From positions 3,903,227-3,967,226 of the forward strand of contig NC_019693.1 of assembly GCF_000317105.1 (NCBI RefSeq): a stretch of DNA of 64,000 bases. Reading direction: 5' to 3'. Of this stretch, positions 41,917 to 57,560 are shown piece by piece. The notes beneath the pieces are model-generated. The model had not been told where the DNA came from. It saw only the letters and a program-made list of their open reading frames with translations, and did no database searches. The stretch's first letter is position 1. Every line of letters begins with the position of its first letter. The translations under genes and the position numbers were made by a program. This DNA comes from Oscillatoria acuminata PCC 6304 (lineage in GTDB: Bacteria > Cyanobacteriota > Cyanobacteriia > Cyanobacteriales > Laspinemataceae).

Positions 41917-42255
41917 TCCACTCTTTCCGATTTACTAATGCCTACTCGACGCGATTCTAGTGTAATTACAGTTGACCTAGGAGCAATTTGAGGAGAAAAT
42001 AGGCACGAGTCACGATAAGTATATTTACGGATTGAATCCGGGATAACTTGGTTTTATCGGGTTTTTTCCCCAGAAATCAAGTCCAAATTCTAAAATGGTA
42101 GGAATAGAACGAACAAGAGGCTGAGGTTAAATCAAAACCTGGGGTTAGCACAAAAAAAGGAAAAAAGCACCTCTCTCTAGGATAAAGCGGTTTCTTAACG
42201 TTCTGCCGTTCCCACGTTGAAAGTGCCATCCCCAAGCTCCAGACTCCTCTGAATC

Positions 42256-45200
42256 ATGATAAAAATCAGTCCATCTGTCCTCCTGCGTCTATTGAGCAAA
42301 CTGTCTCAGCTTTGCTACCCCAAAAATCAGCCTTCAACGCCATTGCTACAATTCCTGCATTCCGTGGGAATTGCCCTCGTCAGTGTCACCCTTGCCACGG
42401 TGATTAAAAGTGCCCTAGCACCCTTAATCTTAGGGGAAAGCCCATTTTTGGTGTATTTTGCGGCGATTATGGTCAGTGCTTGGTTTGGGGGTCCGAAAGC
42501 GGGAGTGATGGCTACCCTGGGGGCCGGATTAGTCAGCAGTTACTTATTTTTATCTCCCGGTTATGCTCTGATAGAAAGCAGTCCGAGCCAAATATTTCGG
42601 TTAATTTTATTTTTAATCGAAGGGTCGGCAATTGTGATCGCCATTGGTTCATTGCAACATACGAAACAACAGTTCGCCCAGAGTGCTAGAACCGCTCAAC
42701 AACATTTTGAATCTTTTTTGCAAAGCGAACAGCGCTTTCATTTATTGGTGGATGGCATCGAAGATTATGGACTTTATATGCTTGCGCCCGATGGGCGGGT
42801 AAATAGCTGGAATCCGGGAGCAGAACGCCTCAAAGGGTATGCACCCGAGGAGATTATTGGTCAACATTTTTCCTGCTTTTATCCCCCAGAAGCAGTGGCG
42901 GAAGGGCAACCGGAACGAGACTTGAAACAGGCGGCAGAACAGGGACGATTGGAACAAGAAGCAGAACGACTGCGAAAGGACAGAACCCGCTTTTGGGTGC
43001 ATGAAGTGATTACACCGTTATTCGATAAGCAGGGTAATCTTTATGGGTTTTCTAAAATTAGCCGGGATATCACCGAAAGTAAGCAAACTGAGGCGGAACT
43101 CAGAGCCAGTGAACAACGATTTAAGACCCTCGCTGAATCGACAGTGGAAGGGATTTTATTTTATGAAGGCGACTGCATCATTGCCGTGAATCGCTCCCTG
43201 GAAAAGATATTTGGATATGACCCGGACGACCTGAATGGACTGCCCTTAGCCTCTATTTTTACCGAGGAGACGGTAGCATTAATGGTGAACGACTGCCAAT
43301 GGATGCAGGAGGGAGCATCGGAGGCAGTCGGGATCAAAAAAGAGGGGACAATGGTGAGCCTAGAAGCAGTAATTCAACCGACTCTCTATTTGGGTCGTTC
43401 CGTATGGATGGCATCAGTCCGGGACATCAGCGATCGCAAACGGGCAGAAGCCGACCTCCAACAAACCTTAAAAGAATTATCCGATTTCCAATGGGCTTTA
43501 GATAAATCAGCAATTGTTGCTACAACTGATGCTAAAGGAACGATTCAATATGTTAACGAAAAATTTATTGAAATTTCTAAATATTCCGAGTCTGAATTGA
43601 TTGGACAAGACCATCGGCTGATTAATTCCGGTTATCATCCTAAAGAATTTTTTATCAATCTTTGGGTGACCATCGGTCGCGGGGAAGTGTGGCGAGGTGA
43701 AATTAAAAATCGGGCCAAAGATGGGACTTATTATTGGGTCGATACAGTCATTGTGCCGTTTTTAGATAGTCATAAAAAGCCCTTTCAATATTTAGCCATC
43801 CGCTACGATATTAGCCAACGGAAACAGGCCGAAGAAGCCCTGCGCGACAGTGAAAAACGGTTCCGGGATATGGCAGATACTGCCCCGGTGCTGTTGTGGA
43901 TAGCCAATTGTCAGGGGCAGTGGACCTTTTTAAATAAATGGGGCTTAAACTTCATCGGCGCATTAATTGAAGCGGACCCGGACCTCAACCATCGGGACCG
44001 GATCCATCCCGAGGACCAGGTCCAATGCGTCTTGAGTTACCAACAAGCGGTGAGAGTCGGCCAACCCTTTACCCAGGAATACCGCCTACAACGATCGGAT
44101 GGAGCCTATCGTTGGATGCTAGAAACTGGGGTGCCCCGGTGGAATCCCGAGGGCAATTTAGTCGGGTTCATTGGGTCGGCGATCGATATTACCCCCCTCA
44201 AACAGGCGGACACGGAACGGATGAAACTGTTACAACGGGAACAATCTGCCCGAACTCAAGCCGAAGCCAGCGAGCAGTATTATCGATTCCTGAGCGAGGC
44301 GATTCCGCAAATGGTCTGGACCGCCCTACCGGATGGGACCCTAGATTACCTGAGTCACCGCTGGAGTGAGTACACCGGCTTAAGCGAGGCCGAACTTTTA
44401 GGCTGGGGATGGGAGCCCATCGTGCATCCTGACGACTTGGCCGAATGTAACCAACGGTGGGCCGCTTGCCTAGAAAACGGAGAACCTTATGAAATTGAAG
44501 CCAGAATGCGTCGGGGTTGCGATGGCGCTTATCGCTGGCATCTGGGATTAGCGGTGCCGATGCGGGATCATCAGGGGGCAATCGTCAAGTGGTTTGGGAC
44601 AAATACGGACATTCACGAACGCAAGCAGGTACAGCAAGAGCGCATGGAGTTGTTGGAACGGGAGAAAGCGGCCCGAATTTTGTCCGAACGGGCGACCACA
44701 ATGGTGCATCGGTTACAAGCGATTGTGGATGTGGCGATCGCCCCTTTATCTCTCGATGATCTGGTGCAAGAGTTGCTCGATCGCCTCACGGTGGTATTAG
44801 AAGTAGATGCTGCCGTCATTTTATTGGTCAACGAGGACCAAACCGCCTTAATTGTGACCGCCACAAAAGGCTTAGATTTAGAGCAACCCCTATCTCCGAA
44901 TATCCCGATCCCGATGGGTCTGGGATTTTCTGGACAAATTGCCCAGACTCGGCAACCGATGCGGATTGATCATGATGCTTATACTCAAGTGATTAGTCCG
45001 CTGTTCCGACATAAGAAAATTGAGTCCATTATGGGCGCACCGATGCTACTAGAAGACCGGGTGCTTGGGGTGCTCCATGTCAGTACCGAGTCACGACGAG
45101 AATTCATGGCAGAAGATGTCTATTTGCTGCAACTGGTGGCCGATCGCGTGGCCCTTGCTATTGACCGGGCCAACCTCTATGAGGCCCAGCAGCAAGCCCG

Positions 45201-46365
45201 CGATCGCGCCGAAAAAGCCAACCGACTCAAGGATGAATTTTTGGCGATCGTTTCTCATGAATTGCGGACTCCCCTCAACTCCATTCTCGGCTGGGCGCAA
45301 TTGCTCCGTGCGCGCACCCTGAAAGAAGAAACGCGAGACAAAGCCCTGGAAACCATCGAACGCAATGCCAAGCATCAGGTGACCCTGATTGACGATATCC
45401 TGGATGTCTCGCGGATTATGCGGGGGAAAATTCGCCTGACCCGAGTTCCCTTGTATCTGGAAACTCTCGTGGAACAGGCGATCTCCACCGTGACTCCGGC
45501 AGCGGAAGCTAAATCCATTGAAATTTACACCGAGTTCAACTCCCACGGACAGCCGATTTTAGGGGATACTAGCCGCCTGCATCAAATTGTCTGGAATCTG
45601 CTCTCTAATGCCGTAAAGTTCACCCCCAATGGCGGACGGCTGACGGTGGCGATCGAGCAGGTGGGAGATTACCTAGAATTTCGGGTCCAGGATACAGGGA
45701 TTGGAATCACTGGAGATTTTCTGCCTCACGTCTTTGAGGGCTTCCGCCAAGCCAATAGTTCCTCCACCCGGACTCACGGGGGGCTCGGTTTGGGCTTAAC
45801 CATTGTGCGCTACTTGGTCGAACTGCATGGGGGGACTGTCCATGCCTTCAGCCAGGGAGAAGGCACGGGTTCAACCTTTACCGTGGCACTCCCCATCGGA
45901 GTCTCCCAGAACTCTCCTTTAGACCTCGATTCCATGATTGGCGACGAGAAAGCCATCGCGAACTGTGCCTTGAACCTCGCCGGTTTACAGGTGCTAGTGG
46001 TGGATGACGATCGCGATACCGGAGAGCTAATTGCTCAGGTCCTCGCGGAATATGGGGTCCAGACGACGGTGGTTTTATCCGCTGCCGAAGCCTTAGCCGC
46101 CACCGAGCGATCGCGTCATGATATCTTGATTTCCGATATCGGAATGCCAGAGGAAGACGGCTATGTTTTGATCCGCAAAATTCGCCAGCGCGAGGCGGGA
46201 TACTCTAGGCCCATTCCGGCGATCGCCTTGACTGCTTTCGCTCGGGAAGAGGATCGCCAACAGGCACTTTTAGCCGGGTTTCACCTTCATGTTGCTAAAC
46301 CTGTGGAACCTTTAAAATTAGCCAAAGCTCTCGCGGACATTGCCCAACAAACAGGCTTAATCTAA
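42256..46365 (+). CDS. Hybrid sensor histidine kinase: KdpD-type membrane domain (DUF4118), multiple PAS/PAC, GAF, HisKA, HATPase_c, C-terminal receiver
   Basis: 1369 aa. N-terminal TM block LVSVTLATVIKS…FAAIMVSAWFGG. Repeated PAS-like segments. HisKA H-box LAIVSHELRTPLNSILGWAQLL. G-boxes GLGLGLTIV. Receiver VLVVDDDRDTGELIA…DIGMPEEDGY. Confidence 0.85.
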   Translation: MIKISPSVLLRLLSKLSQLCYPKNQPSTPLLQFLHSVGIALVSVTLATVIKSALAPLILGESPFLVYFAAIMVSAWFGGPKAGVMATLGAGLVSSYLFLSPGYALIESSPSQIFRLILFLIEGSAIVIAIGSLQHTKQQFAQSARTAQQHFESFLQSEQRFHLLVDGIEDYGLYMLAPDGRVNSWNPGAERLKGYAPEEIIGQHFSCFYPPEAVAEGQPERDLKQAAEQGRLEQEAERLRKDRTRFWVHEVITPLFDKQGNLYGFSKISRDITESKQTEAELRASEQRFKTLAESTVEGILFYEGDCIIAVNRSLEKIFGYDPDDLNGLPLASIFTEETVALMVNDCQWMQEGASEAVGIKKEGTMVSLEAVIQPTLYLGRSVWMASVRDISDRKRAEADLQQTLKELSDFQWALDKSAIVATTDAKGTIQYVNEKFIEISKYSESELIGQDHRLINSGYHPKEFFINLWVTIGRGEVWRGEIKNRAKDGTYYWVDTVIVPFLDSHKKPFQYLAIRYDISQRKQAEEALRDSEKRFRDMADTAPVLLWIANCQGQWTFLNKWGLNFIGALIEADPDLNHRDRIHPEDQVQCVLSYQQAVRVGQPFTQEYRLQRSDGAYRWMLETGVPRWNPEGNLVGFIGSAIDITPLKQADTERMKLLQREQSARTQAEASEQYYRFLSEAIPQMVWTALPDGTLDYLSHRWSEYTGLSEAELLGWGWEPIVHPDDLAECNQRWAACLENGEPYEIEARMRRGCDGAYRWHLGLAVPMRDHQGAIVKWFGTNTDIHERKQVQQERMELLEREKAARILSERATTMVHRLQAIVDVAIAPLSLDDLVQELLDRLTVVLEVDAAVILLVNEDQTALIVTATKGLDLEQPLSPNIPIPMGLGFSGQIAQTRQPMRIDHDAYTQVISPLFRHKKIESIMGAPMLLEDRVLGVLHVSTESRREFMAEDVYLLQLVADRVALAIDRANLYEAQQQARDRAEKANRLKDEFLAIVSHELRTPLNSILGWAQLLRARTLKEETRDKALETIERNAKHQVTLIDDILDVSRIMRGKIRLTRVPLYLETLVEQAISTVTPAAEAKSIEIYTEFNSHGQPILGDTSRLHQIVWNLLSNAVKFTPNGGRLTVAIEQVGDYLEFRVQDTGIGITGDFLPHVFEGFRQANSSSTRTHGGLGLGLTIVRYLVELHGGTVHAFSQGEGTGSTFTVALPIGVSQNSPLDLDSMIGDEKAIANCALNLAGLQVLVVDDDRDTGELIAQVLAEYGVQTTVVLSAAEALAATERSRHDILISDIGMPEEDGYVLIRKIRQREAGYSRPIPAIALTAFAREEDRQQALLAGFHLHVAKPVEPLKLAKALADIAQQTGLI

Positions 46366-46474
46366 TCCCTGAATTTCAGGTCCCCTCTGGATCCTGACGA
46401 AGTTTTGCCGGTTTCAAGGCTAAAATTGGAATTAGGGAAGCACCCGTTTGTTGTGAGGCGATTTTATTGGGATC

Positions 46475-46745
46475 ATCTTTGAAAAGAGACCTATCCCCCC
46501 GGCCCCCTTCCCTAAGAGGGAAGGGGGAGAAAGAGATTTGTTTTCCCCTTTCTTTAGTAATTGGGAGCATCTTTGAAAAGAGACCTATCCCCCCGGCCCC
46601 CTTCCCTCAGAGGGAAGGGGGAGAAAGAGATTTGTTTTCCCCTTTCTTTAGTAATTGGGAGCATCTTTGAAAAGAGACCTAACCCCCCGGCCCCCTTCCC
46701 TAGGAGGGAAGGGGGAGAAAGAGATTTGTTTTCCCCTCCCCTACA
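46475..46745. repeat. Tandem repeat, about 3 units of 94 bp, each containing the palindrome CCCCCTTCCCTAAGAGGGAAGGGGG
   Basis: Units start at 46475, 46569 and 46663 with exact 94-bp period. The ORFs over it (46467-46670, 46561-46854) are frame artefacts. Confidence 0.85.
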
Positions 46746-46790
46746 AAAGGCTTACAAGAGTATGTTTTTTACCCTCATGGTGATTGGCCG

Positions 46791-46990
46791 GACTTCCGGT
46801 CCCCTCCCCTTGGCAAGGGGAGGGTTAGGGTGGGGTCCTCCTGACTTGGCTTGACTTCCGGTTCCCTCCCCTTGGCAAGGGGAGGGTTAGGGTGGGGTCC
46901 TCCTGACTTGGCCTGATTTCCGGTCCCCTCCCCTTGGCAAGGGGAGGGTTAGGGTGGGGTCCTCCTGACTTGGCGCAGGCCAAGTCAGGA
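46791..46990. repeat. Tandem repeat, 3 units of 62 bp (GACTTCCGGTCCCCTCCCCTTGGCAAGGGGAGGGTTAGGGTGGGGTCCTCCTGACTTGGC...) ending in the palindrome GACTTGGCGCAGGCCAAGTC
   Basis: Units start at 46791, 46853 and 46915. Each contains the CCCCTTGGCAAGGGG palindrome. Confidence 0.85.
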
Positions 46991-47109
46991 AGAATTAGTA
47001 CGTTGAGGGTCCACTCGCAAGGGCGATCGCACGTCACGAAGAAGCAGGTTGGCACCCGGTTCCATACAGGCGATTAAGCCTCATGGGAGTGCGTGACATG
47101 GCGATCGAC

Positions 47110-47422
47110 CAAGAAGAACCCCACCCTAACCCGGACCTAGAATCAGGGGAGGGGACCGGAAGTCAGGCCAATTAGGGAATTCCAAAAAATAAAATCTCCA
47201 AAACGTTCGTAGTGACGGATCAACGGAGTAGCCCCTACAGATACCTTCCTTTCAGTTGAACGTTTGGAGGATTTATATTTTGCAATCCCCTTAGAAGAAC
47301 CCCACCCTAACCCGGACCTAGAATCAGGGGAGGGGACCGGAAGTCAGGCCAATCAATTAGAAGAACCCCACCCTAACCCGGACCTAGAATCAGGGGAGGG
47401 GACCGGAAATCAGGCCAATCAT
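47110..47422. repeat. Three copies (two tandem) of an about 66-bp unit AGAAGAACCCCACCCTAACCCGGACCTAGAATCAGGGGAGGGGACCGGAAGTCAGGCCAAT, in inverted orientation relative to the 46791-46990 array
   Basis: The CCCCACCCTAACCC core is the reverse complement of the GGGTTAGGGTGGGG core of the upstream array. ORF 47264-47467 is a translation artefact of the repeats. Confidence 0.8.
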
Positions 47423-47635
47423 GATGAGCTTGAAAACACTACTCTTGTAAGGGTAGGGCAAAATTGAGAGGCTCTTATCCAGGTCAGGCTTTCGTGATTT
47501 TCTCAGCATTAAAACCCATTCATCCCGTTTGGGTTCAAAGGACTATTTAGGTTTGACCCGGCTCCACAAATTCAACCCTTTTCACTGCTTAGACCGCTGC
47601 TAAAACAATTCATAATTTTAATGAATTAAACCCGT

Positions 47636-50600
47636 ATGAAACCATTTAATTTTAATCTGGCCACGCTCAGTCCAGAAGCTGATGGACAAAGATTAAAAAA
47701 ACCCCCCCAAACTAACAGTAACCAGCAACAAAAAATCCTATTAGCTAGCGGTATATTAGGGTTGCTTGCCCTCTTAGCCCTCCTGCTCTGGCCAGATCTG
47801 CTGGGTAATCTGTTGGCACAGGATGGGTTTATTCCCCACGGCCATTGTTATCTCTGGAAGCCTTCCTTAGTCTGGCTTCATGTCACCTCAGATACCTTGA
47901 TTGGCATCGCCTATGTTGCCATTTCCACTAGTCTTGCCTATTTTGTTTATAAAGCGCGAAAAAATATCCCCTTTGATTGGATGTTTTTGGCCTTTGGGGC
48001 CTTTATCATTGCTTGTGGCATGACCCATTTTTTAGCGGTCTGGACCTTGTGGAATCCCACCTACTGGTTATCGGGGGATGTCAAATTAATCACCGCGATC
48101 GCCTCCGTCACTACGGCAATTTCTTTACCCCCGTTAATCCCTAGAGCCTTGAGATTATTGGACTCGGCTCAGGTTTCGGAAGAACGTCGCTTGAATCTGG
48201 AGCGGGCCAATTTAGAACTGCAAGCCCTTTATGGTCAGCTTAAGCAACTCGATGAACTTAAAAGCCAATTTTTCGCCAATGTCAGTCACGAATTGCGAAC
48301 CCCTCTGGCTTTAATTTTAGGTCCGACTCAGAAGTTACTCGCCGATCGCCAACTCTTGGAGGAACAACACCGAGACTTGCTCGTAATCGAGCGCAATTCC
48401 CGAATGCTGCTCAAACAGGTTAATGATCTCCTGGATATCTCTAAGCTAGAAGCGGGTAAGATGGAACTCGAAGCAGTTCCCCTAAACTTAGCCAGTCTGA
48501 TCCGCCAAGTGGCGGCGAACTTTGACGCTTTAGCCCTCGAACGGGAAATTAACTTAACGGTCCAGACTCCTGAGTCTTTGGGGACCCAATTGGACCGCCA
48601 AAAAATCGAGCGGGTGGTTTTAAACTTACTCTCCAATGCATTTAAGTTCACACCCCCGGGAGGCCAAATTGACTGTTCTTTGTCTCTGGAAGAGGGCGAA
48701 GGAGAGAAAAACCCGGTAACGATCGCCATCCAAGATAGTGGTCCAGGAGTCCCGTTGGAACGGCGTGAAACCATCTTTGAGCGGTTTAGCCAAATTGAGG
48801 GAGGGAGTACCCGTCGCTTTGGCGGGACTGGGTTGGGATTGGCGATTGTCAAGGAATTTGTCGAACTCCATCAGGGAAGCATTACTGTCTCGGATGCCTC
48901 CCTAGGTGGGGCGATGTTTACGGTCCAACTTCCCATTGAGGTTTCCCCGGACCTCCCTCAGACGGATTCAGAAAGTTCCATCTGGGAGGATCTGGCTGAA
49001 TCGGCGATCGCTGAACTGAAGCCAGAAGCCGATACAACTCCCAGGGTTCTGCTTCCCAATGACCCTCGTCCCCTGGTTTTAGTGGTGGAAGATAACCCGG
49101 AAATGAATCGCTTTGTCTGCGATATCTTAGGACGGGACTATCAAATTGCGACAGCGTTTAACGGGGAGCAAGGATTGGAACAGGCACTCACCCTGCATCC
49201 GGATTTAATCTTGAGTGATGTGATGATGCCCGAAATTGGCGGCGATCGCCTGGTGTCTTTGTTACGCAGTAATCCGGATTTCGCCGATGTGTCCATTATC
49301 ATGCTGACGGCAAAAGATGATGATGATTTGCGGGTGCAGTTATTGCGTGAAGGGGTGCAAGATTATCTGATGAAACCCTTTTCTGTGGAAGAATTGCGGG
49401 CAAGGGTAGGCAATGCAGTCGCCATTAAACGGGTGCGAGATTTGTTACAGCAGGAGTTAGCCTCTCAAAGCTCCGATGTAGAAGTCCTCGCCTCGGAACT
49501 GGCTTTCCATAAGCGAGAACTGGAAGTCGCGCTGATCCTTCAACAGAAACAGTCGGAAGAATTAATCAAGGCGAATCAAATCAAGGATGAGTTTTTATCG
49601 ATTGTTTCCCATGAACTGCGCACGCCTCTCAATTCCATTCTGGGCTGGACTCAGTTGCTTCGCACTCGCAAGCTGAATGAAACCATGCAGAACAAAGCAT
49701 TGGAAACTATTGAGCGCAATGCTAAACAACAGGTGAATTTAATTGATGATATTCTGGATGTTTCTCGGATTATTCGGGGCAAAATTCGCTTAAAACTGCG
49801 TCCGGTGAATTTAATTCCGATTGTGGAAGCGGCCCTGGATACGATGCTTCCCACGGCGGAATCTAAGGGAATTGAGATTGATTTCAACTTTGACCCGGCA
49901 GTCGCCTTGGTTTCGGGAGATAGCGATCGCTTGCAGCAAGTGGCTTGGAATTTGTTTTCTAATGCGGTGAAGTTTACCCCCAATGGCGGCTCGATTTCCG
50001 TGGCGATCGCCCAGACGGATTCCTATATTACCCTCAAGGTTCAGGATACTGGAATTGGCATCAATCCAGACTTTCTGCCCCATATTTTTGAGGGATTCCG
50101 CCAAGCGGATAGTTCTACCACTCGCGCCTATGGCGGATTAGGGTTAGGATTGACCATCGTCCGTCACTTAGTGGAACTCCACGGGGGCAAAGTCCAGGCT
50201 TTGAGCGAGGGGGAAGGCCAAGGGGCCACGTTGATGGTCCAGTTACCGATTCTGCCCAAACCGCCACAAGAGCAAGCAGTCCAGACTTCCTACTCCCGGG
50301 AAGAAGGATTATCCAGTCAACTCTGGGCCCTGGATGGGTTGCAGGTGTTGGTGGTGGATGACGACCCGGATACCGGGGATTTAATGGAAGCGATGCTGAC
50401 CGATTATGGGGTGCGGGTTCAGGTAGTGACTTCGGTTTCCGAGGCGATCGCCCTGATGGACCAATGCAAATTTGATGTGTTAGTCAGCGATATTGGAATG
50501 CCCGGAGAAGACGGATATCATTTAATTCACCAAATCCGCCAGCATGAAGCTGACAGCAACAACCATATTCCTGCGATCGCCCTGACGGCTTTTTCCTCCG

Positions 50601-50710
50601 AGGAGGACCGCGCCCAATCCCTCCTAGCTGGCTTTCAAAAACACCTTTCTAAACCTGTAGAACCCGCCCAATTAGCCAGGGTTTTAGCTCAGTTGGCTTC
50701 AAATCTCTAA
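47636..50710 (+). CDS. Hybrid histidine kinase with N-terminal ethylene-binding-domain-like (ETR1-type) membrane sensor followed by HK-REC-HK-REC
   Basis: 1024 aa. TM region SDTLIGIAYVAISTSLAYFVYKARKNIPFDWMFLAFGAFIIACGMTHFLAVWTLW aligns with Arabidopsis ETR1 [53 protein letters not shown], including the Cu-ligand Cys and His (CGxTH). Two H-boxes are present (FANVSHELRTPLAL; LSIVSHELRTPLNSILGWTQLL). Two receiver domains are present (VLVVEDNPEMNRF…SDVMMPEIGGD; VLVVDDDPDTGDL…DIGMPGEDGY). Confidence 0.8.
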   Translation: MKPFNFNLATLSPEADGQRLKKPPQTNSNQQQKILLASGILGLLALLALLLWPDLLGNLLAQDGFIPHGHCYLWKPSLVWLHVTSDTLIGIAYVAISTSLAYFVYKARKNIPFDWMFLAFGAFIIACGMTHFLAVWTLWNPTYWLSGDVKLITAIASVTTAISLPPLIPRALRLLDSAQVSEERRLNLERANLELQALYGQLKQLDELKSQFFANVSHELRTPLALILGPTQKLLADRQLLEEQHRDLLVIERNSRMLLKQVNDLLDISKLEAGKMELEAVPLNLASLIRQVAANFDALALEREINLTVQTPESLGTQLDRQKIERVVLNLLSNAFKFTPPGGQIDCSLSLEEGEGEKNPVTIAIQDSGPGVPLERRETIFERFSQIEGGSTRRFGGTGLGLAIVKEFVELHQGSITVSDASLGGAMFTVQLPIEVSPDLPQTDSESSIWEDLAESAIAELKPEADTTPRVLLPNDPRPLVLVVEDNPEMNRFVCDILGRDYQIATAFNGEQGLEQALTLHPDLILSDVMMPEIGGDRLVSLLRSNPDFADVSIIMLTAKDDDDLRVQLLREGVQDYLMKPFSVEELRARVGNAVAIKRVRDLLQQELASQSSDVEVLASELAFHKRELEVALILQQKQSEELIKANQIKDEFLSIVSHELRTPLNSILGWTQLLRTRKLNETMQNKALETIERNAKQQVNLIDDILDVSRIIRGKIRLKLRPVNLIPIVEAALDTMLPTAESKGIEIDFNFDPAVALVSGDSDRLQQVAWNLFSNAVKFTPNGGSISVAIAQTDSYITLKVQDTGIGINPDFLPHIFEGFRQADSSTTRAYGGLGLGLTIVRHLVELHGGKVQALSEGEGQGATLMVQLPILPKPPQEQAVQTSYSREEGLSSQLWALDGLQVLVVDDDPDTGDLMEAMLTDYGVRVQVVTSVSEAIALMDQCKFDVLVSDIGMPGEDGYHLIHQIRQHEADSNNHIPAIALTAFSSEEDRAQSLLAGFQKHLSKPVEPAQLARVLAQLASNL

Positions 50711-50870
50711 ACTTGAAGTTTGAAGCGGACCCTATCCAGAGTTTCACTTCAGAGTTAAGATAAGGGCATGAACAAATTGGGGCTCAAAGGAAGCGGACCT
50801 ACGGTCAAGTTGGATCCTTCAATCTCAGGGTTAGAGCGTGACTGCCAATCCGATACAAGGACGCAAGGCG

Positions 50871-51248
50871 ATGGCCAAAATTTTGATTGTTGATGACTCT
50901 ACCCTTTCTCGCGGAATCCTACGACGCATCCTCCAGACAGAAGGCCATTCAATTATTGAGGCCAAAGATGGATTGATGGGCATTGAGAGTTACTATATAG
51001 AAAAACCCGACCTCGTTTTACTGGATATCGCCATGCCAGATATGCAGGGAACGGAAGTGCTGGAAAAATTACGCGCCTTCGACGATCGCGCCCGCATCGT
51101 GATGGCGACGGCTGACCTGCAAGAACTGACCCGCGCTGCGGTGATGGCTGCTGGAGCACTGGGTTATCTGACTAAACCCTATAATCCCGATGTGGTTCTG
51201 GACATCGTGAATCAGGTCCTCCGAGGAATTCCGGGAGGGGTAGGATGA
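50871..51248 (+). CDS. CheY-like single-domain response regulator (longer ORF from 50838)
   Basis: MAKILIVDDSTLSRGILRRIL…DIAMPDMQGTEVL…GALGYLTKP. Receiver Asp pocket is present and no output domain. Confidence 0.75.
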   Translation: MAKILIVDDSTLSRGILRRILQTEGHSIIEAKDGLMGIESYYIEKPDLVLLDIAMPDMQGTEVLEKLRAFDDRARIVMATADLQELTRAAVMAAGALGYLTKPYNPDVVLDIVNQVLRGIPGGVG

Positions 51249-51889
51249 AACTGACAGAAACCCAAAAGGATGCTTTAAGCGAACTGCTGAATATGGGTTT
51301 CTCGCGCACTGCATCGGCCCTCTCGGAACTCACGGGTCATCGTGTGTTACTAGAGGTTCCCCAGGTTTCCATTCATCCCATTGAAGAACTCAGCGCCAAA
51401 CTCGGGACCTTTGTCAAAGGGGAAATTGCCACAGTCCAGCAAATTTTTACGGGACGGGTTTCAGGAAATGCCCTGTTATTGTTGAACTATGACGGGGCTG
51501 TGCAACTGACAGAGTTGGTGACGCCGGAACAAAATATCCATCGCGATCGCCTCGATGCCTCTGCTGCCGAAGTGCTCACGGAAATTGGCAATATTTTACT
51601 CAATGCCTGTCTGAGCGTTTTTGGGAATTTGTTACAAATGCAAATTTCGTTTTCCGTTCCTCGGTTACATTTAGAAGCCTTAGATGGGTTACTCCATTCT
51701 CTAAGCATTGGGAAGGCGGAAATGCGCTATGCAATGGTGGTTTATACCGGATTTCGGATGAAGGAAAATTCAATTCACGGGTATTTAGTTATGGTCTTAA
51801 GTGTGGTTTCTTTAGAAAAATTGCTAGAAGAAATTGATAACTGGGTAAGGGAGGAAATAGCTCCACCTAACCTTTCCATTTCTTCATAA
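51245..51889 (+). CDS. CheC-family protein (CheY-P phosphatase-like)
   Basis: 214 aa. The N-terminus ..QKDALSELLNMGFSRTASALSELTGHRVLLEVPQVSI matches the CheC/CheX pattern. Its start codon overlaps the CheY stop (ATGA). Confidence 0.5.
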   Translation: MKLTETQKDALSELLNMGFSRTASALSELTGHRVLLEVPQVSIHPIEELSAKLGTFVKGEIATVQQIFTGRVSGNALLLLNYDGAVQLTELVTPEQNIHRDRLDASAAEVLTEIGNILLNACLSVFGNLLQMQISFSVPRLHLEALDGLLHSLSIGKAEMRYAMVVYTGFRMKENSIHGYLVMVLSVVSLEKLLEEIDNWVREEIAPPNLSISS

Positions 51890-51901
51890 TGGAATCATCT
51901 A

Positions 51902-54274
51902 TTGAGTTGTACAAAAGGGCTTAGTAAAATGAACAGGATTACCGACCCGTTCAACTATAATCAAGACCTCCTGCATTGGGTCAATGACTTAGCAGACCGA
52001 GGGATATTTACGACCGATGCCCAGTTGAATATCCAAAGTTGGAATCATTGGCTGGAACTTTATAGTGGGTTGAATGCGGACCGGGTAGTGGGGCAAAATT
52101 TACTAGAAATTTATCCCGAATTAAAGCATCGGCGATTAGATCGATTTTTTGATCAAGCTCTAGCGGGACAAGTGGCGGTTTTGTCTCAGCGTTTACATGG
52201 GTTTTTGTTACCGATGCTCCCAGCCGATGTTTATAAGGACGTGCCTTATATGCTACAAAGTGCGAAAATTGCGCCAATTGTGGAAGCGTCCCGGGTGATT
52301 GGCACGATCGCCACCCTTGAAGATGTCACAGAACGGGTGCTGCGGGAGTCGGAACTCCACCATCAAATTAAGGAATTAAAACGGACTGAATCGGCGCTGA
52401 TGGCGACTCAAAGCCAGCTTCAATATTTGTTGTCCTCTAGTCCAGCAGTCATTTATACTTGTCCTGCTAAGCAGCCCTATTCTCCAACTTTTGTGAGTGA
52501 GAATATTGTTGAACATCTGGGATATCGACCGGAAGAAATTGTCGGGGACTGCTCATTTTGGCGCGATCGCATTCATCCCGATGATGCACCCGAGCTATTC
52601 TCCAGCATCAAACTGTTATATCAGAGGGGTCATTCCCAGAGCGAGTATCGGTTCTGGCATCCAGAGGGCAGCTATCGATGGGTGCGGGATGAAATGAAGC
52701 TGATTTGCAAGGGAGAGCACCAGGTTGAAGAAATTGTCGGGGCATTATATGATATCACCGATCGCAAACGAGTCGAAGAACAAGTGCGCCAACAGGCAGC
52801 CCTTCTGGACATTGCCACCGATGCGATTTGGGTCAAGGACCTAAACCAAACGATTCAGTTTTGGAATAAAGGGGCGGAAAAATTATATGGATGGACTCGT
52901 GAGGAAGCAAGTGCTCAAAGTAGTAGCCGCCTGTTTGAGGTGAAAAGTGCCGAAGAACTCAACCGCATTGAGCAAACGGTCCTGACAACGGGGGAATGGC
53001 ATGGAGAGTTAGAGCAAATCACCAAAGCGGGTAAATCCATCACCGTTGCCAGTCGGCAGACCCTGGTGCGGGACGATCGAGATCGGCCCTGTTCCATTCT
53101 CTCAGTGAATACGGATATTACTGAGAAAAAACAGCTAGAAGCCCAGTTTTTGCGAGCGCAACGCCTCGAAAGTATCGGCACATTAGCGAGTGGCATTGCT
53201 CATGATTTGAACAACATTCTCACCCCCATTTTGGGGGCTGTGCAACTGTTGCAAATGTTTCCGTTAAATGCCCAGCAAATGCGCTTAATTTCTATGCTGG
53301 AAATTAATACGTTGCGCGGCGCGGACCTGCTCAAACAAGTGCTTTCATTTGCCAAAGGATTAGATGGCGATCGCACCCTGCTCCAAATCAAACACCTGAT
53401 TGATGAAACCACAGCGATCGCCCGAGAAACCTTTCCCAAATCCATTGAAATTACCACGGCGATCGACCCCCAACTCTGGTTAATTTCCGGGGACCCGACT
53501 CACCTGCATCAAATCCTGATGAATCTGTGCGTTAATGCTCGTGATGCCATGCCCAACGGCGGGATTTTATCCATTGAAGCTGAAAATTTGAACCTCACCC
53601 CATCGGATTTAATCCTAGACCCCGCAGCTCAAGTTGGCTCTTATATTAAACTCACAATTCGAGATACCGGAACCGGCATTTCTCCGGAAATTTTAGACCG
53701 ATTATTTGAACCGTTCTTTACCACCAAAGCCTTAGGACAAGGCACGGGATTAGGGTTGCCCACCGTTCGAGGCATCGTTAAAAATCATGGCGGTTTTTTA
53801 TTGATTTCTAGTCAACTTGGCCAAGGCACCGCCTTCACCGTGTATTTGCCTGCGATTCAGGGAACAGAAGCTCTAGCTTCGGAACCGCAAGAACTTCCTT
53901 TCGGAGCAGGTGAGCTAATTTTAGTCGTCGATGATGAAGTCGCTATCTGTGAAATTGCTCAAGCCCTGCTGCAAAAATTTGGCTATCATGTTCTAACGGC
54001 CAATGATGGGATGGAGGCTATTTCCCTTTACAGTCAACGATCCTCAGAAATTGCCGTAGTGATTCTGGATATGATGATGCCATTCATGGATGGAATGCTC
54101 ACTTTAAAAGCCCTTCAAAAAATTAACTCCTCGGTCAAAGTTATTGCCATTAGCGGACTTCTGAGCAATTTTCCCTTAGCTGAATTGGGCGATGATAATT
54201 CATTCACCTATTTATCCAAACCCTATAAAACCCGCGATTTATTATGCTTAATTCGCAAACAAATTGAGCAATAA
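51902..54274 (+). CDS. PAS/PAC-rich hybrid sensor histidine kinase with C-terminal receiver
   Basis: 790 aa. Three PAS-like blocks. H-box LASGIAHDLNNILTPILG. ATPase G-boxes GTGLGLPTV. Receiver LILVVDDEVAICEIA…ILDMMMPFMDG. Confidence 0.8.
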   Translation: MSCTKGLSKMNRITDPFNYNQDLLHWVNDLADRGIFTTDAQLNIQSWNHWLELYSGLNADRVVGQNLLEIYPELKHRRLDRFFDQALAGQVAVLSQRLHGFLLPMLPADVYKDVPYMLQSAKIAPIVEASRVIGTIATLEDVTERVLRESELHHQIKELKRTESALMATQSQLQYLLSSSPAVIYTCPAKQPYSPTFVSENIVEHLGYRPEEIVGDCSFWRDRIHPDDAPELFSSIKLLYQRGHSQSEYRFWHPEGSYRWVRDEMKLICKGEHQVEEIVGALYDITDRKRVEEQVRQQAALLDIATDAIWVKDLNQTIQFWNKGAEKLYGWTREEASAQSSSRLFEVKSAEELNRIEQTVLTTGEWHGELEQITKAGKSITVASRQTLVRDDRDRPCSILSVNTDITEKKQLEAQFLRAQRLESIGTLASGIAHDLNNILTPILGAVQLLQMFPLNAQQMRLISMLEINTLRGADLLKQVLSFAKGLDGDRTLLQIKHLIDETTAIARETFPKSIEITTAIDPQLWLISGDPTHLHQILMNLCVNARDAMPNGGILSIEAENLNLTPSDLILDPAAQVGSYIKLTIRDTGTGISPEILDRLFEPFFTTKALGQGTGLGLPTVRGIVKNHGGFLLISSQLGQGTAFTVYLPAIQGTEALASEPQELPFGAGELILVVDDEVAICEIAQALLQKFGYHVLTANDGMEAISLYSQRSSEIAVVILDMMMPFMDGMLTLKALQKINSSVKVIAISGLLSNFPLAELGDDNSFTYLSKPYKTRDLLCLIRKQIEQ

Positions 54275-54349
54275 AAATTCTGAATTTTAGATATCAAAAC
54301 CGGATTAACTCCGAGAAATGAATCCGGTTTTGATACCCTTTTTTTCAAC

Positions 54350-54931
54350 TTAAGCGTTCAACTTAGCTAACATTTGCGCCACTTTTGCGCCGATATTTTC
54401 CACCGCTTCTTGCTGGTTGGGGTCTTTTAACATCCCCGATTCCGTAAACGCTTCCATCGCTTGGGGGATGGCTTTTTGATTGGGCAAGACAATCATATTA
54501 ATATTCGCCAGCATTTCTCGGAGTTGAGCCAAACCCCGTAATCCCCCTAACGCACCGGGAGAGGTACTCATAATGGCCACCACTTTGCCGGAAAAAGCAG
54601 CCAGCATGGGTTCCCCAGGAGCCGGACGAGATACCCAATCGATCGCATTTTTGAGCAGGGGACTAATGGTGCTATTATACTCCGGAGATGCAATCAATAA
54701 GCCTTGATGAGCAAAGAAAAGCGATTTTAACTCCTGAGCATAGCTGGGCATTCCCTCTGCTGCTTCTAAGTCTTGGTCAAACAGGGGGATGGGAAAATCT
54801 CGCAGGTCAATATAGGTGACCTCTGCACCGGCTTTTCTAGCACCATTGGCCGCAATTTGGACCAGTTTTTTATTAAATGACCCTTCACGAGCACTGCCAG
54901 CAAAGGCGAGAATTTTGGGGGGATTAGACAT
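54350..54931 (-). CDS. NAD(P)H-dependent FMN reductase family protein (ChrR/YieF-like flavin reductase)
   Basis: 193 aa. The N-terminus PKILAFAGSAREGSFNKKLVQIAANGARKAGAEVTYIDL matches the family pattern. Confidence 0.7.
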   Translation of the reverse strand: MSNPPKILAFAGSAREGSFNKKLVQIAANGARKAGAEVTYIDLRDFPIPLFDQDLEAAEGMPSYAQELKSLFFAHQGLLIASPEYNSTISPLLKNAIDWVSRPAPGEPMLAAFSGKVVAIMSTSPGALGGLRGLAQLREMLANINMIVLPNQKAIPQAMEAFTESGMLKDPNQQEAVENIGAKVAQMLAKLNA

Positions 54932-55061
54932 TGTTACTCCTCTGGTTTTGAGTTCACAAATAACAGGACTTACGCATAAACTCCTGATGCGATAAGGTTG
55001 ATTCGCGAATCAACCCTACCTGAACAGGTGTGATTTTAAATAATGCGTAAGTCCTAAGTTA

Positions 55062-57560
55062 TCATAGCCCATTTGTGGGGTAACTCTGCCTGGGATTGAA
55101 TGATGATGACGGATCGGGTTGCCGAAATTCACCCTGAATCTGCACCCGCTTAAACTTATCCCCAGAGATACTCACTCCTGGGGCGATTCTCATAGCCGTT
55201 CGAGGTTGCTCTTGGGGTTGCTGAAACTCCACTTCCGTTCCATCCATCCATACCTGCTGCACCGCCATCCCATGAATCTGCAACTCCACCGATGAGTAGG
55301 GAAACGGATAATCTCCTTGAGATTCCCAGGCGATCGCCAACCCTTCTGGGGTTCGTTCCAGGTGAATCTGATCCAGACGCGACTCCCCATATCCATCGCC
55401 CGCATCGCTATACAAGAATCCTCTGCTGTTCCCCTCCGTCGGGGGATAGAGATGTAAGGTTAAATGCTCCCCTTGCTCCATCGGTAAGACAGTCCCCGCC
55501 TTGACAAACAGGGGAATTTCCTCTAAAGGAACCTCTAGCCGTAAGCGTTGCGACCCCTCAATGATGGTATCATCGGTGAATTTATACCACTGGCCCTGGG
55601 GAAACACAGCCAGTCGCGATCGCACCTTGTCCTTGACAATTGGATAAACTAACAGCCCATCTCCCAGGAAAAAGGCATCGTCCATCCCCCATAACTCAGA
55701 ATTCTCCGGTTCCGACCAAAACAACGGACGCACCGGAGGATATCCCTGGTGAGTGGCTTCCCAAGCTAAGGTATAAAAATAGGGGATGAGTTGGTAGCGC
55801 AGTTGCAGCAGCGATCGCACGCAATCTAAAACGTGCAGCCCATAACCCCAAGGTGTGCGAGGTTTAACGTTATTTGCCGAATGAGTGCGACAAAAGGGCA
55901 AAAAAGTCGAGAGTTGAAACCAGCGTAAATATAATTCCGCCGAAGGATTGCCCTTAAATCCGCCAATATCCGGCCCGGTATAGGGAATCCCAGATAATCC
56001 CATCCCCAACACCGTCGGCAGCGTCTGCCCCAACCCCCCCCAACTGGTTTCGATATCTCCAGTCCAAGTCCAGGCATAGCGCTGTAATCCGGCCCAACCG
56101 GACCGGGAGACGATGAAAGGACGACGACTGGGGCGAGAGTCCCGCAGGGCTTCATACCCGGCCCGCGCTTGCTGTAATCCGTAGATATTATGTGCTTCTA
56201 AATGGATGCCGCCTCGACCTTCCATAAAATGCTGGGTCGCTTTGGGGAGGGTGGCATCTCCCCAAAGGGCAAATACCCCCGGGTCATTCATATCATGCCA
56301 AAATCCGGCAATCCCCATATCTAGGAGATATTCATATTGCCGACTCCACCAATGACGGGCGAGGGGATGGGTAAAATCAGGAAAGGCTGACATTCCCGGC
56401 CAGACGGGAGCATGAACGATGTTACCATTGGGTAATTTACAAAAGATATCCTGGCTAACCCCTTCGCGATACAGTTGACTGCGGCGATCGCGCTTCACCC
56501 CGGGATTAACGATCGCCACCATGTTCACCCCTTCCTCGGCCATCTCTTGATTGAACTCCCTGAGCTTGGGAAAACGGTCCGGGTCGATGGTAAATGAGCG
56601 AAAGTTATCTTTGCAGTCAATATCCAGGTGAATCGCACTTAGGGGGAGATTATGCTTCTGGAATCCTTGGGCGGTTTCCCGGACTGCCTCTTCCGTTTCA
56701 TATCCCCACCGGGATTGATGATAGCCAAAAGCCCATCGCGGAGGCAGGGGCGGACGTCCGGTTAATTGGGTATAAAGGGCGATCGCTTTAGCCGGTTCTG
56801 CGGCAATCATATAATAGCGCAAGGCTCCCCCGGCAAAGGCGGCAATCGCCGAGTCTCCCAAGGTAAAGGTGGCAGAAAAGCTATTTTCATAAAATACCAA
56901 ATAACTGCCATTGTCATGCAATCCCATATATACCGGAATGCAGAGATACAAAGGGTCAGACCCGGGTCCATACTTTCCCCCGGCATCATAATGCCACATC
57001 TGATATCGGGGGTTTTGACTGGCGCGTAAATTGAACGGGGCCGCCCGTTCTCCTAATCCATAAATCTGCTCAGGCGATCGCAACAGGGCTTCTTGTTGCC
57101 ATGCTTCCCCCCGACGTTGGGGCGGTAATTCTTGGCGCAACACTCGCCCATTAGCATCTTGAAATTCGATGCCGCCTTCGGGTTTGACAATGACTTTGAG
57201 GCGATCGCTACGGATAATTTTTCCCTGTTCCGTGTCCTGCAATTGCAGATCCACTTCCGGCCAATCTTGTTGGACAATGCCATAAGGCACAGGTGCGAGT
57301 CCCGGTTGCCAATTCACCCGCACTAATTCCGGGGATAGAAATTCAATCTCTACCTGGGCTTTTTCAAAGCTAAACTGAGCACCTTGGCTGGTTTTTTCAA
57401 CGGTGAGCAACCGTCCCGGGGTGGTGAGAGGTTGCACTTTTTGGGAACTGTGATATTGGCGATCGGCCCAGTCTCGTTGAAAGGTATAAATTAAAGAAGC
57501 AATAAACCGTTCTAATCGAATGAATCGCAGTTTTAAAGAAATTTGTTTGAGAATATTCAT
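55062..57560 (-). CDS. Glycoside hydrolase family 31 alpha-glucosidase
   Basis: 832 aa. Catalytic-nucleophile region GFWHDMNDP. GH31-like length and motif spacing. Confidence 0.75.
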   Translation of the reverse strand: MNILKQISLKLRFIRLERFIASLIYTFQRDWADRQYHSSQKVQPLTTPGRLLTVEKTSQGAQFSFEKAQVEIEFLSPELVRVNWQPGLAPVPYGIVQQDWPEVDLQLQDTEQGKIIRSDRLKVIVKPEGGIEFQDANGRVLRQELPPQRRGEAWQQEALLRSPEQIYGLGERAAPFNLRASQNPRYQMWHYDAGGKYGPGSDPLYLCIPVYMGLHDNGSYLVFYENSFSATFTLGDSAIAAFAGGALRYYMIAAEPAKAIALYTQLTGRPPLPPRWAFGYHQSRWGYETEEAVRETAQGFQKHNLPLSAIHLDIDCKDNFRSFTIDPDRFPKLREFNQEMAEEGVNMVAIVNPGVKRDRRSQLYREGVSQDIFCKLPNGNIVHAPVWPGMSAFPDFTHPLARHWWSRQYEYLLDMGIAGFWHDMNDPGVFALWGDATLPKATQHFMEGRGGIHLEAHNIYGLQQARAGYEALRDSRPSRRPFIVSRSGWAGLQRYAWTWTGDIETSWGGLGQTLPTVLGMGLSGIPYTGPDIGGFKGNPSAELYLRWFQLSTFLPFCRTHSANNVKPRTPWGYGLHVLDCVRSLLQLRYQLIPYFYTLAWEATHQGYPPVRPLFWSEPENSELWGMDDAFFLGDGLLVYPIVKDKVRSRLAVFPQGQWYKFTDDTIIEGSQRLRLEVPLEEIPLFVKAGTVLPMEQGEHLTLHLYPPTEGNSRGFLYSDAGDGYGESRLDQIHLERTPEGLAIAWESQGDYPFPYSSVELQIHGMAVQQVWMDGTEVEFQQPQEQPRTAMRIAPGVSISGDKFKRVQIQGEFRQPDPSSSFNPRQSYPTNGL

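Follow-up and report, generated by a model that had tools for sequence, protein, structure and literature searches.

The window, by which we mean the whole stretch of 64,000 nucleotides of Oscillatoria acuminata DNA that was analysed, contains a gene for a 1024-aa sensor protein; at NCBI, an 'ATP-binding protein' of Oscillatoria acuminata (7.69-Mb contig) matches it with 100% identity. The features of the locus, with the evidence for each in brackets, were as follows.

42256..46365, plus strand: upstream partner kinase of 1369 aa with DUF4118, five PAS domains, GAF, HK and REC (Pfam)
46466..47421, no strand: hairpin repeat arrays in an enlarged intergenic region upstream of the sensor gene (TRF)
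47636..50710, plus strand: sensor gene of 1024 aa encoding TM0, EBD, HK1, REC1, the alphaS linker, HK2 and REC2 (ORF, translation, Pfam)
47720..47788, plus strand: TM0, an extra N-terminal hydrophobic helix, aa ~29-51 (Kyte-Doolittle, AF2 helix 29-51)
47834..47848, plus strand: P67-H68-G69-H70-C71 motif, directly before EBD helix 1 (invariant-column list)
47867..48157, plus strand: ethylene-binding domain (EBD) homologue, aa 78-174, with helices at 76-107, 113-139 and 143 onward (Pfam ETR1_N, residue mapping, AF2)
48248..48937, plus strand: LvrA-like HK1 (DHp+CA), aa 205-434, with phospho-His H218 at nt 48287-48289 (Pfam, NCBIfam LvrA)
49067..49429, plus strand: REC1, aa 478-598, with E485/D486, phospho-Asp D528 (nt 49217-49219), T558 and K580 (Pfam, invariant columns)
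49430..49570, plus strand: alphaS, a long helical linker from REC1 alpha5 to DHp alpha1 of HK2 (AF2 helices 584-610 and 615-677)
49571..50251, plus strand: HK2 (DHp+CA), aa 646-872, with phospho-His H659 at nt 49610-49612 (Pfam, paralogue background, tree)
50345..50683, plus strand: REC2, aa 904-1016, with D908-D910, phospho-Asp D952 (nt 50489-50491), T984 and K1006 (Pfam, motif positions)
50838..51248, plus strand: CheY-like single-domain receiver, likely start ATG 50871 (Pfam Response_reg, E=8e-26)
51245..51889, plus strand: CheC-type phosphatase homologue of 214 aa (Pfam CheC at 37.5 bits, cut-off 22)
51902..54274, plus strand: PAS-PAS-HK-REC kinase, likely start ATG 51929, 781 aa (Pfam, translation)

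A Pfam scan of the 1024-aa protein found ETR1_N once and HisKA, HATPase_c and Response_reg twice each, in agreement with the original prediction of an EBD hybrid kinase with two HK-REC sets. The His, Asp, N, G1, F and G2 catalytic motifs were all intact, and the catalytic residues were invariant columns among 63 family members. The AF2 model was computed for the monomer and is of moderate confidence (pLDDT 72.7, pTM 0.33). It placed helices at aa 29-51, 76-107, 113-139, 143-235, 584-610 and 615-677, and the linker helix is broken at aa 611-616, where confidence is low. The same prediction had described the HK-REC output as duplicated; the kinases of modules 1 and 2 fall into separate subfamilies, with 33-38% identity between HK1 and the HK2-type module, and this ruled the modules out as duplicates of each other. 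Current databases name the protein just 'ATP-binding protein' or 'CikA'.

The N-terminal region matched the Pfam profile ETR1_N (PF25487) with an E-value of 6.8e-37 and 126.1 bits against a cut-off of 27, aa 78-174 corresponding to profile positions 2-97 of 97. The residues were mapped on an AtETR1 reference sequence that agrees with 11 published residue numbers. The key residues of the EBD were D86, Y93, I96, S97, I124, C127, T130, H131, K150 and S157, and the helix-2 string AFGAFIIACGMTHF was located at aa 119-132. The putative Cu(I) ligands C127 and H131 aligned with C65 and H69 of ETR1 and were present without exception in the 120 homologues as well as in the 147 cluster representatives; ETR1 residues D25, Y32, I35, I62, C65, T68, H69, K91 and S98 were all conserved and invariant across the 120 homologues. 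D86 in helix 1 and K150 in helix 3, invariant throughout the family, correspond to the Asp25-Lys91 pair, for which a coupling role has been described in ETR1 (PMC10266040). Hydropathy analysis showed four N-terminal hydrophobic segments, which fits TM0 plus three EBD helices, and in the predicted topology the kinase would lie on the cytoplasmic side of the three membrane helices. Judged from the profile match and the residue mapping, the N-terminus is a genuine homologue of the ETR1-type ethylene-binding domain. An EBD with Cys/His ligands in helix 2 had been proposed for this region; the ligands are kept and the predicted helices fit the EBD topology, the two points on which that proposal depended.

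The Kyte-Doolittle peak for TM0 was centred at aa 40-53 and basic residues precede the helix, which recalls the extra N-terminal hydrophobic segment of subfamily-II plant receptors (PMC9603746); the loop after TM0 would lie outside the cytoplasm. In the motif that leads into helix 1, P67, H68, H70 and C71 were invariant in the 63 family members and G69 was at least 90% conserved. The motif has a single Cys, unlike ETR1 with its Cys4 and Cys6, and may serve as a dimer disulfide or a metal hand-off site. The putative cyanobacterial receptors GeiEtr1 and GeiEtr2 carry the same lead-in before helix 1, MPHG[HQ]CYLW.

Comparison with ETR1 of Arabidopsis (EBD-GAF-HK-REC) showed that the two proteins share the three-helix N-terminal EBD and a histidine kinase and receiver downstream of it. 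The 1024-aa protein differs by the lack of a GAF domain, helix 3 running directly into the DHp, and by having a second kinase, arranged in series with the first, and a second receiver; being bacterial, it has no CTR1/EIN2 pathway. The residues that AtETR1 is reported to need for binding ethylene, I35, P36 and I62 among them (P36 in PMC6586836), were not all kept: I96 and I124 match, whereas Ser97 takes the place of Pro36. Ethylene as the ligand stays a candidate because of this substitution. We found no ethylene-binding tests on any Ser-type EBD in the literature.

The same wiring could instead serve a sensor of Cu(I) availability, redox state or a small hydrophobic molecule, with a Ser36-type EBD, TM0 and the PHGHC motif as its sensing parts. 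This reading draws on the presence of Ser at position 36 in 120 of 120 homologues, on the absence of Pro from 19 of 19 dual-kinase EBD representatives (Ser, Ala or Gly), on the Pro retained in GeiEtr1 and GeiEtr2, on the occurrence of family members in Acidobacteriota, Polaromonas glacialis and Bacteriovoracaceae, and on the invariant H68, H70 and C71 that adjoin helix 1. However, the remaining residues of the binding pocket and both Cu ligands are all conserved, among the nearest EBD cluster representatives 95 of 147, of many architectures, also carried Ser at this position, and PHG[HQ]C extends beyond the Ser subfamily, since it occurs in the Pro-type GeiEtr1 and GeiEtr2. On these counts Ser at position 36 is a common natural variant, and we regard a sensor for something other than ethylene as rather unlikely. 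The invariant change from Pro36 to Ser marks a subfamily whose ligand needs checking before its members are given the name of ethylene receptors.

Bacterial EBDs fused with a two-component kinase are also found in SynEtr1 (Slr1212/UirS), GeiEtr1, GeiEtr2 and AzoEtr1. SynEtr1 and AzoEtr1 bind ethylene, and motility or biofilm formation is under their control. In these four proteins PAS, GAF or cyanobacteriochrome domains separate the EBD from one kinase, whereas in the family of the 1024-aa protein no domain intervenes, HK1-REC1 is LvrA-like and another kinase follows. EBD helix 3 and DHp alpha1 of HK1 were predicted to form one helix (aa 143-235 in the AF2 model), with no GAF between them, and the distance from K150 to the phospho-His of HK1 was 68 residues in 158 of 159 family proteins and 75 in the remaining one.

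The best NCBIfam match was LvrA, with 637 bits and aa 188-605 corresponding to profile positions 181-594. This falls short of the 1200 bits that the LvrA model (NF047465) sets as its cut-off, so that the 1024-aa protein is no LvrA orthologue; a bona fide LvrA (L040), adjoined downstream by LvrB, scored 1346 bits and was 40% identical to it over 715 columns. LvrA of Leptospira is a PAS-DHp-CA-REC-DHp-CA protein with H218, D524 and H616, and its preferred phosphate target is its own D524 (PMC5863495). The DHp-CA-REC-DHp-CA order was found in the 1024-aa protein with phosphorylatable H218, D528 and H659, at near-equal coordinates. The differences lie in the sensor, which is a cytoplasmic PAS in LvrA and a membrane EBD here, in the REC-to-DHp2 linker, which is 39 residues longer than in LvrA, and in the extra C-terminal receiver. 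HK2 also belongs to another kinase subfamily than the second kinase of LvrA, with weak similarity there, which counts against the LvrA analogy. In UniRef naming HK2 is of a CikA-like type that is common among cyanobacteria. Neither LvrB nor LvrC was found among the scanned neighbouring genes.

The second half of the architecture, with a receiver, then a helix, then DHp-CA, resembles LvrB. Foldseek returned full-length LvrB at ranks 2-7 (E~4e-20, about 415 aligned columns). Of 125 proteins, 123 had a spacing of 117, 124, 131 or 138 residues between the equivalents of D528 and H659, and in both helical linkers the length differences were constrained to seven-residue steps. Linkers with lengths in multiples of seven are favoured in Rec-HK proteins, and in LvrB phosphorylation of the REC makes the kinase active by letting alphaS form a coiled coil (PMC13269768). 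With its receiver joined to DHp-CA by a heptad-constrained signalling helix, as seen in the AF2 model and in the spacing, REC1-HK2 looks like a Rec-controlled kinase of the LvrB kind.

Because of the resemblance to LvrA and LvrB and the heptad-constrained linkers, a serial flow from the EBD to HK1, to REC1, to HK2 and to REC2 appears the likeliest, on sequence, model and analogy, and is favoured over the branched outputs of the original prediction. In a branched or parallel scheme both kinases would answer to the EBD and each would phosphorylate the receiver behind it, giving two independent outputs. Although the Pfam scan did place a receiver behind each kinase, the CA domain and REC1 stand between the EBD and HK2, and the sole rigid, length-constrained connection into DHp2 starts at REC1. 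REC2 was missing in family members of about 870 aa, the majority form, so that the conserved unit is HK1-REC1-HK2, and some variants place PAS or GAF domains between REC1 and HK2, as expected of inputs to HK2. In favour of branching, LvrA itself donates phosphate to LvrB as well as to the REC that it carries, in a pathway that its authors call branched (PMC5863495). Overall we regard branched outputs as improbable. The Pfam scan of 23 ORFs, spanning about 22.9-60.3 kb of the window, turned up neither an HPt protein nor an output regulator.

A membrane ETR1-like sensor kinase with a two-tier cascade within one polypeptide, with its proposed ligand and phosphate steps, is in our judgement the best explanation and a reasonably probable one. 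In this serial scheme a ligand, with ethylene as the leading candidate, would bind at the Cu(I) site, probably as an inverse agonist by analogy with ETR1 and AzoEtr1, and would shift the register of helix 3 and alter the autophosphorylation of H218. Phosphate would then pass from H218 to D528 of REC1, and phosphorylated REC1 would make the linker form a coiled coil, releasing the CA domain of HK2, as in LvrB, for autophosphorylation of H659. H659 would in turn hand the phosphate to D952 of REC2, from where it would reach a further partner. The upstream PAS/GAF kinase, whose DHp helix is nearly the same as that of HK2, probably feeds the same downstream node, and the CheY/CheC/kinase trio would be a lineage-specific add-on.

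The architecture had been called unusual, yet the EBD-HK-REC-HK core was present in 120 of the 120 best database homologues, and beyond cyanobacteria it was found in Spartobacteria, Acidobacteriota, Polaromonas and Bacteriovoracaceae. Our literature search found no study of any member of this EBD two-kinase family, and its wiring appears not to have been described before. We put forward, tentatively, that a large bacterial clade of Ser36, GAF-less ETR1-like proteins may relay the state of a Cu(I)/ethylene site through a fixed-length helix into an LvrA-type two-tier cascade; the hosts of this clade are filamentous cyanobacteria, Verrucomicrobiota, Acidobacteriota, Betaproteobacteria and Bdellovibrionota-like bacteria.

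We know of no experimental structure of an ethylene-receptor transmembrane sensor, and a PDB sequence search with the EBD of the 1024-aa protein gave no match. The coupling of ligand binding to the kinase in ethylene receptors has been modelled, not observed (PMC10266040, PMC6586836). The junction from helix 3 to the phospho-His, of invariant length and without a GAF, makes for a simpler bacterial system than the plant receptors for structural and biochemical work, and the family could serve as a simple model of ethylene-receptor signalling. It also bridges bacterial ethylene receptors and Rec-controlled kinases, fields that were unconnected in the literature searched; the activation mechanism of LvrB was solved in 2026 (PMC13269768), and specific predictions follow from this connection for mutants of H218, D528, H659 and D952. 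If the family binds ethylene, ethylene sensing would be wired to Rec-controlled kinases in many bacteria that are not plant-associated, and a minimal all-helical EBD-to-DHp junction would be at hand for solving receptor signalling. If it does not, the 'ethylene-binding domain' fold would have a second ligand class.

Module 2 was then compared with the HK-REC module of the upstream partner kinase (aa 978-1363, nt 45187-46344). The two share KALETIERNAK[HQ]QV[TN]LIDDILDVSRI[MI]RGKIRL, as had been noticed for the 1369-aa kinase, and the phospho-His with the next 12 residues, HELRTPLNSILGW, is the same in both. BLASTP gave 60% amino acid identity over 386 ungapped residues; compared part by part, identity was 67% for HK and 60% for REC. 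In a neighbour-joining tree of 60 HK+REC modules, the modules of the two neighbouring genes formed one clade with 98% bootstrap, and this held in two lineages. Each of the two modules thus has the other as its closest paralogue. The specific relationship that had been claimed thus stands, whereas its description as a near-copy does not: nucleotide identity was 62.5%, third-codon positions were 42.5% identical overall and 49.6% in codons for identical residues, the longest exact DNA run was 14 nt, with synonymous sites near saturation, and the DNA comparison revealed no gene-conversion tracts between the modules. In favour of a recent duplication of the neighbouring kinase gene, or of recombination with it, are this paralogy and locus L081, where the partner module clusters with that of the gene beside it (70% bootstrap), a grouping that hints at occasional conversion or independent duplications. 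Four lineages, two clades each of module 2 and of the partner module, were about equidistant (0.43-0.51 substitutions/site), which together with the third-codon divergence contradicts a recent origin of module 2, and both genes are kept as a pair in Laspinema and Phormidium, with 82-95% identity; such an event is highly improbable. The adjacency of the two genes was kept in 10 loci, 9 of the Laspinema clade and L081.

The sensor gene had been described as embedded in a three-kinase/CheY/CheC cluster. The neighbours are as stated, but the CheY/CheC/kinase trio was absent at three related loci (L008, L009 and L081), and by this distribution the cassette is accessory. The CheY-like and CheC genes overlap by 4 nt, and the CheC homologue carries both active-site motifs, D9-x3-E13-x2-N16-x22-P39 and a second E-x3-E-x2-N-x22-P; its NCBIfam CheC match (E=1e-22) was under the equivalog cut-off. 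A 214-aa protein with the CheC fold signature and both D/S-x3-E-x2-N-x22-P-type sites, next to a CheY-like gene, recalls the CheY/CheC pair of Bacillus and Thermotoga. The locus differs from these in that no CheA, CheW or MCP was found among the Pfam-scanned ORFs (about 22.9-60.3 kb of the window). Orthologues of the PAS-PAS-HK-REC kinase have 780-781 aa.

Upstream of the sensor gene, TRF identified repeats with units of 94 bp (2.9 copies), 62 bp (3.1 copies) and 66 bp (2 copies), further copies of which lie elsewhere within the window. At orthologous loci the corresponding gap is about 260-350 bp. These hairpin arrays are outside the signalling system, yet they are located within the promoter region of the sensor gene.

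Translation of the window gave the sensor ORF (1024 aa), which was 100% identical to an Oscillatoria acuminata database protein located on a 7.69-Mb contig. The current names of this protein are 'ATP-binding protein' (NCBI) and 'CikA' (UniRef), and it bears no more specific name. Pfam placed ETR1_N (PF25487, 'Ethylene receptor 1-like, N-terminal domain') at aa 78-174 (E=6.8e-37), and C-terminal to it HisKA, HATPase_c and Response_reg were each found twice (HK1-REC1, module 1; HK2-REC2, module 2). The neighbouring genes, as seen from Pfam and translations, were those of the original prediction, namely an upstream kinase, a CheY-like protein, a CheC-type protein and a third kinase.

42256..46365 (+), upstream kinase, 1369 aa, domain order DUF4118, five PAS, GAF, HK, REC
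47636..50710 (+), sensor
probable start 50871, CheY-like receiver, downstream of the sensor gene
4-nt overlap with the CheY-like receiver gene, CheC-type phosphatase, 214 aa
probable start 51929, PAS-PAS-HK-REC kinase, downstream of the sensor gene

The reference for the ethylene-binding domain (EBD) was residues 1-140 of the AtETR1 sequence, in agreement with 11 published residue numbers. In this alignment, D25, Y32, I35, I62 and C65 of AtETR1 corresponded to D86, Y93, I96, I124 and C127 of the sensor, and T68, H69, K91 and S98 to T130, H131, K150 and S157; all these sensor residues were invariant among the best 120 homologues. The predicted conservation of the Cys/His ligands relative to ETR1 was thus borne out (C65/H69 aligned with C127/H131). 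In ETR1, C65 and H69 are the Cu(I) ligands, while D25 and K91 are a proposed pair coupling binding to helix 3 (PMC10266040).

Pro36 of ETR1, counted with the residues essential for ethylene binding in a secondary source (PMC6586836), aligned with Ser97 of the sensor, and a serine was present there in 120/120 of the best homologues. GeiEtr1 and GeiEtr2, the putative Geitlerinema ethylene receptors, have a proline at this position. An exhaustive search with the EBD only gave 8381 clusters (50% identity) at E<=1e-3, and in the 147 nearest representatives serine predominated at position 36 (95 representatives), ahead of Pro (45), Ala (5) and Gly (2). Serine is therefore a common natural variant at this position. 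The open-access literature searched gave no example of a Ser36-type EBD tested for ethylene binding and no description of a Ser36 EBD subfamily, and a PDB sequence search with aa 1-207 returned no match at E<=1. The sensor family is a caution against automatic annotation as 'ethylene receptor'.

Hydropathy showed four hydrophobic segments in the N-terminus of the sensor, and the AlphaFold2 model (pLDDT 72.7) placed helices at 29-51, 76-107, 113-139 and 143-235. This predicted topology fits an EBD, the first helix (TM0, 29-51) being an addition to the EBD helices. The sensor has no GAF domain, and in the model helix 3 was a single predicted helix reaching the DHp helix with His218. A P-H-G-H-C loop (aa 67-71, nt 47834..47848) lies directly before EBD helix 1 and is common to the sensor family, GeiEtr1 and GeiEtr2; in 63 family members its P, H, H and C were invariant and its G was conserved in at least 90%. 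With TM0 present, the loop should face the periplasm, outside the cytoplasm, and may be a dimer disulfide or metal hand-off site.

The output had been described as a duplicated HK-REC, but the two modules were not copies of one another, since HK1 was 33-38% identical to the HK2-type module. Among NCBIfam models the sensor scored best with LvrA of Leptospira (637 bits, below the 1200-bit cut-off), with sensor aa 188-605 aligned to profile positions 181-594. In a Leptospira ellisii locus, LvrB came after a true LvrA that scored 1346 bits, and the sensor was 40% identical to this LvrA over 715 columns. LvrA has the order PAS-DHp-CA-REC-DHp-CA with His218, Asp524 and His616, where the corresponding sites of the sensor are His218, Asp528 and His659, and its preferred phosphate acceptor is its own Asp524 (PMC5863495). 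LvrB is the prototype of the 'Rec-controlled' kinases: upon receiver phosphorylation its linker helices assemble into a coiled coil and the catalytic domain is freed, and linker lengths in kinases of this kind favour multiples of seven (PMC13269768). Full-length LvrB occupied Foldseek ranks 2-7 for the sensor.

We measured junction lengths in 159 proteins of the sensor family. The distance from Lys150 to the His of HK1 was 68 residues in 158/159 proteins and 75 in the other one. Of the 125 proteins with no domain inserted, 123 had 117, 124, 131 or 138 residues from the Asp of REC1 to the His of HK2. The catalytic motifs of HK1, HK2 and REC1 were all invariant in the family, and those of REC2 were intact in the sensor. 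The most economical reading, which goes beyond the domain anatomy, is a serial cascade in which the signal would pass from the EBD to HK1 and on to REC1, phosphorylated REC1 would switch on HK2, and HK2 would phosphorylate REC2. LvrA-type and Rec-controlled kinases are already known, as are EBD-containing bacterial kinases, three of which have experimental support (SynEtr1, Geitlerinema cells and AzoEtr1); reviews mention 'a wide range of output domains' (PMC7700396). In the open-access literature searched, which does not imply absence elsewhere, we came upon no account of an EBD coupled to a two-tier kinase of the LvrA-like kind, and nothing relevant on tandem or dual histidine kinases or on EBD-LvrA or EBD-Rec-HK links. 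The family offers a minimal system for studies of EBD-to-kinase coupling.

ETR1_N with two kinases was present in 120/120 of the best homologues. The commonest form is about 870 aa long and lacks REC2, those of about 1000 aa share the architecture of the sensor, and forms of 1300-1780 aa have PAS and/or GAF inserted between REC1 and HK2. The same EBD two-kinase architecture was found in a Spartobacteria MAG (both receivers present), an Acidobacteriota MAG, Polaromonas glacialis and a Bacteriovoracaceae MAG. Of the 147 nearest EBD representatives, 19 had the two-kinase core, with a proline at position 36 in 0/19 and HK1 beginning about 30-40 residues past the EBD in 19/19. In the Pro-type proteins the EBD-to-kinase distance was about 290-400 residues, which is room enough for intervening domains.

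Family members of about 870 aa without REC2 are preceded by a separate receiver (about 130 aa, …VDDLSDNLFLLQTVLEAEGYEVDTAD…), which is well conserved and lies at the following positions in the loci:

L010:4592-4990, receiver gene
L013:11005-11466, receiver gene
L014:9986-10375, receiver gene
L015:9989-10369, receiver gene
L016:6543-6938, receiver gene
L028:10007-10405, receiver gene

These receivers were rejected as a split-off REC2, their identity to REC1, REC2 and other receivers being about equal (27-37%). They may be the cognate partners of HK2 in genomes with the 870-aa form. Six proteins of about 590 aa (P0289, P0301, P0302, P0306, P0307 and P0357; e.g. from Gloeocapsopsis dulcis and Gloeocapsa sp.) have ETR1_N joined directly to a single HK-REC of the module 2 type (56-57% identity). 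One possible origin of the two-kinase form is a protein of this type into which an LvrA-like HK1-REC1 was inserted; alternatively, the short form may have arisen through loss of HK1-REC1.

A recent module duplication or recombination between the sensor and upstream kinase genes had also been proposed. Module 2 (aa 636-1021) and the upstream-kinase module (aa 978-1363) aligned gap-free with 60% identity, and the phospho-His and the next 12 residues were identical, with the following DHp helix nearly so. Pairwise DNA comparison excluded a recent duplication or conversion, because DNA identity was 62.5%, the longest exact run was 14 nt, and third-codon identity was 42.5% (49.6% within identical-residue codons). 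A homologue search with module 2 only, which gives the paralogue background since the sensor and its orthologues were not among the scored candidates, showed that cyanobacteria are very rich in kinases of this type: every candidate scored was a match (at least 8000), and the best unrelated kinases among them were 50-58% identical. In a neighbour-joining tree (Kimura distances, HK+REC of 60 proteins, 356 columns), module 2 and the upstream-kinase modules, both from the Oscillatoria/Laspinema group and from the lineage of homologues P0013 and P0014, formed a clade with 98% bootstrap, its four groups being about equidistant (0.43-0.51 substitutions per site). Judged from these sequences, the relation between module 2 and the upstream kinase is specific.

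The two genes adjoin each other in 9/9 loci of the Laspinema clade and likewise in the P0013 locus, and we infer that their products address the same downstream partner. A Pfam scan of 23 ORFs, covering about 22.9-60.3 kb of the window, revealed no such partner. In the distant P0013 locus (L081, CAYOOD010000005.1), metabolic neighbours from window 36943..59169 recur in a different order: urease alpha, class-III aminotransferase, HGLS-family dioxygenase, FMN reductase and aldehyde dehydrogenase.

The CheY/CheC/kinase trio (window 50838..54274) was a presence/absence polymorphism, present in seven Laspinema-clade loci. It was absent from those of a Cyanophyceae MAG and Phormidium pseudopriestleyi (L008, L009), where the FMN reductase gene directly follows the sensor gene, and from L081, so that the trio is an accessory cassette outside the conserved unit. 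Both active-site motifs were present in the sequence of the CheC homologue. A promoter/terminator scan of 46.3-54.5 kb gave sites no more numerous than in shuffled sequence and is therefore silent on operon structure.

The stretch between the upstream kinase gene and the sensor gene (46366..47635) was full of hairpin-forming repeats, in which TRF found three tandem arrays:

46466-46737, 94-bp unit, 2.9 copies
46784-46974, 62-bp unit, 3.1 copies
47291-47421, 66-bp unit, 2 copies

Further copies of the repeat units were located at 25389, 25759(-) and 30633(-). This gap measured 1.27 kb, compared with about 260-350 bp in the orthologous Laspinema loci, which points to the insertion of dispersed MITE-like repeats amounting to about 1 kb. 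An ORF at 46561..46854 (97 aa) was rejected as a gene, being wholly inside the tandem repeats and without a Pfam match, and an Rfam scan of 40-56 kb (E<=0.1) gave nothing but a chance mir-634 match inside the repeats. Elsewhere in the window, an 884-aa protein (30674..33328 (-)) had the full eukaryote-type Major Vault Protein domain set (four Vault, E=3e-68; Vault_2, Vault_3, Vault_4; MVP_shoulder, E=2e-55). Its neighbours are a protein of 379 aa that lacks any Pfam match (33582..34721) and one with a CHAT domain (34752..36701), and an AIPR-domain protein is encoded at 28138..29253.
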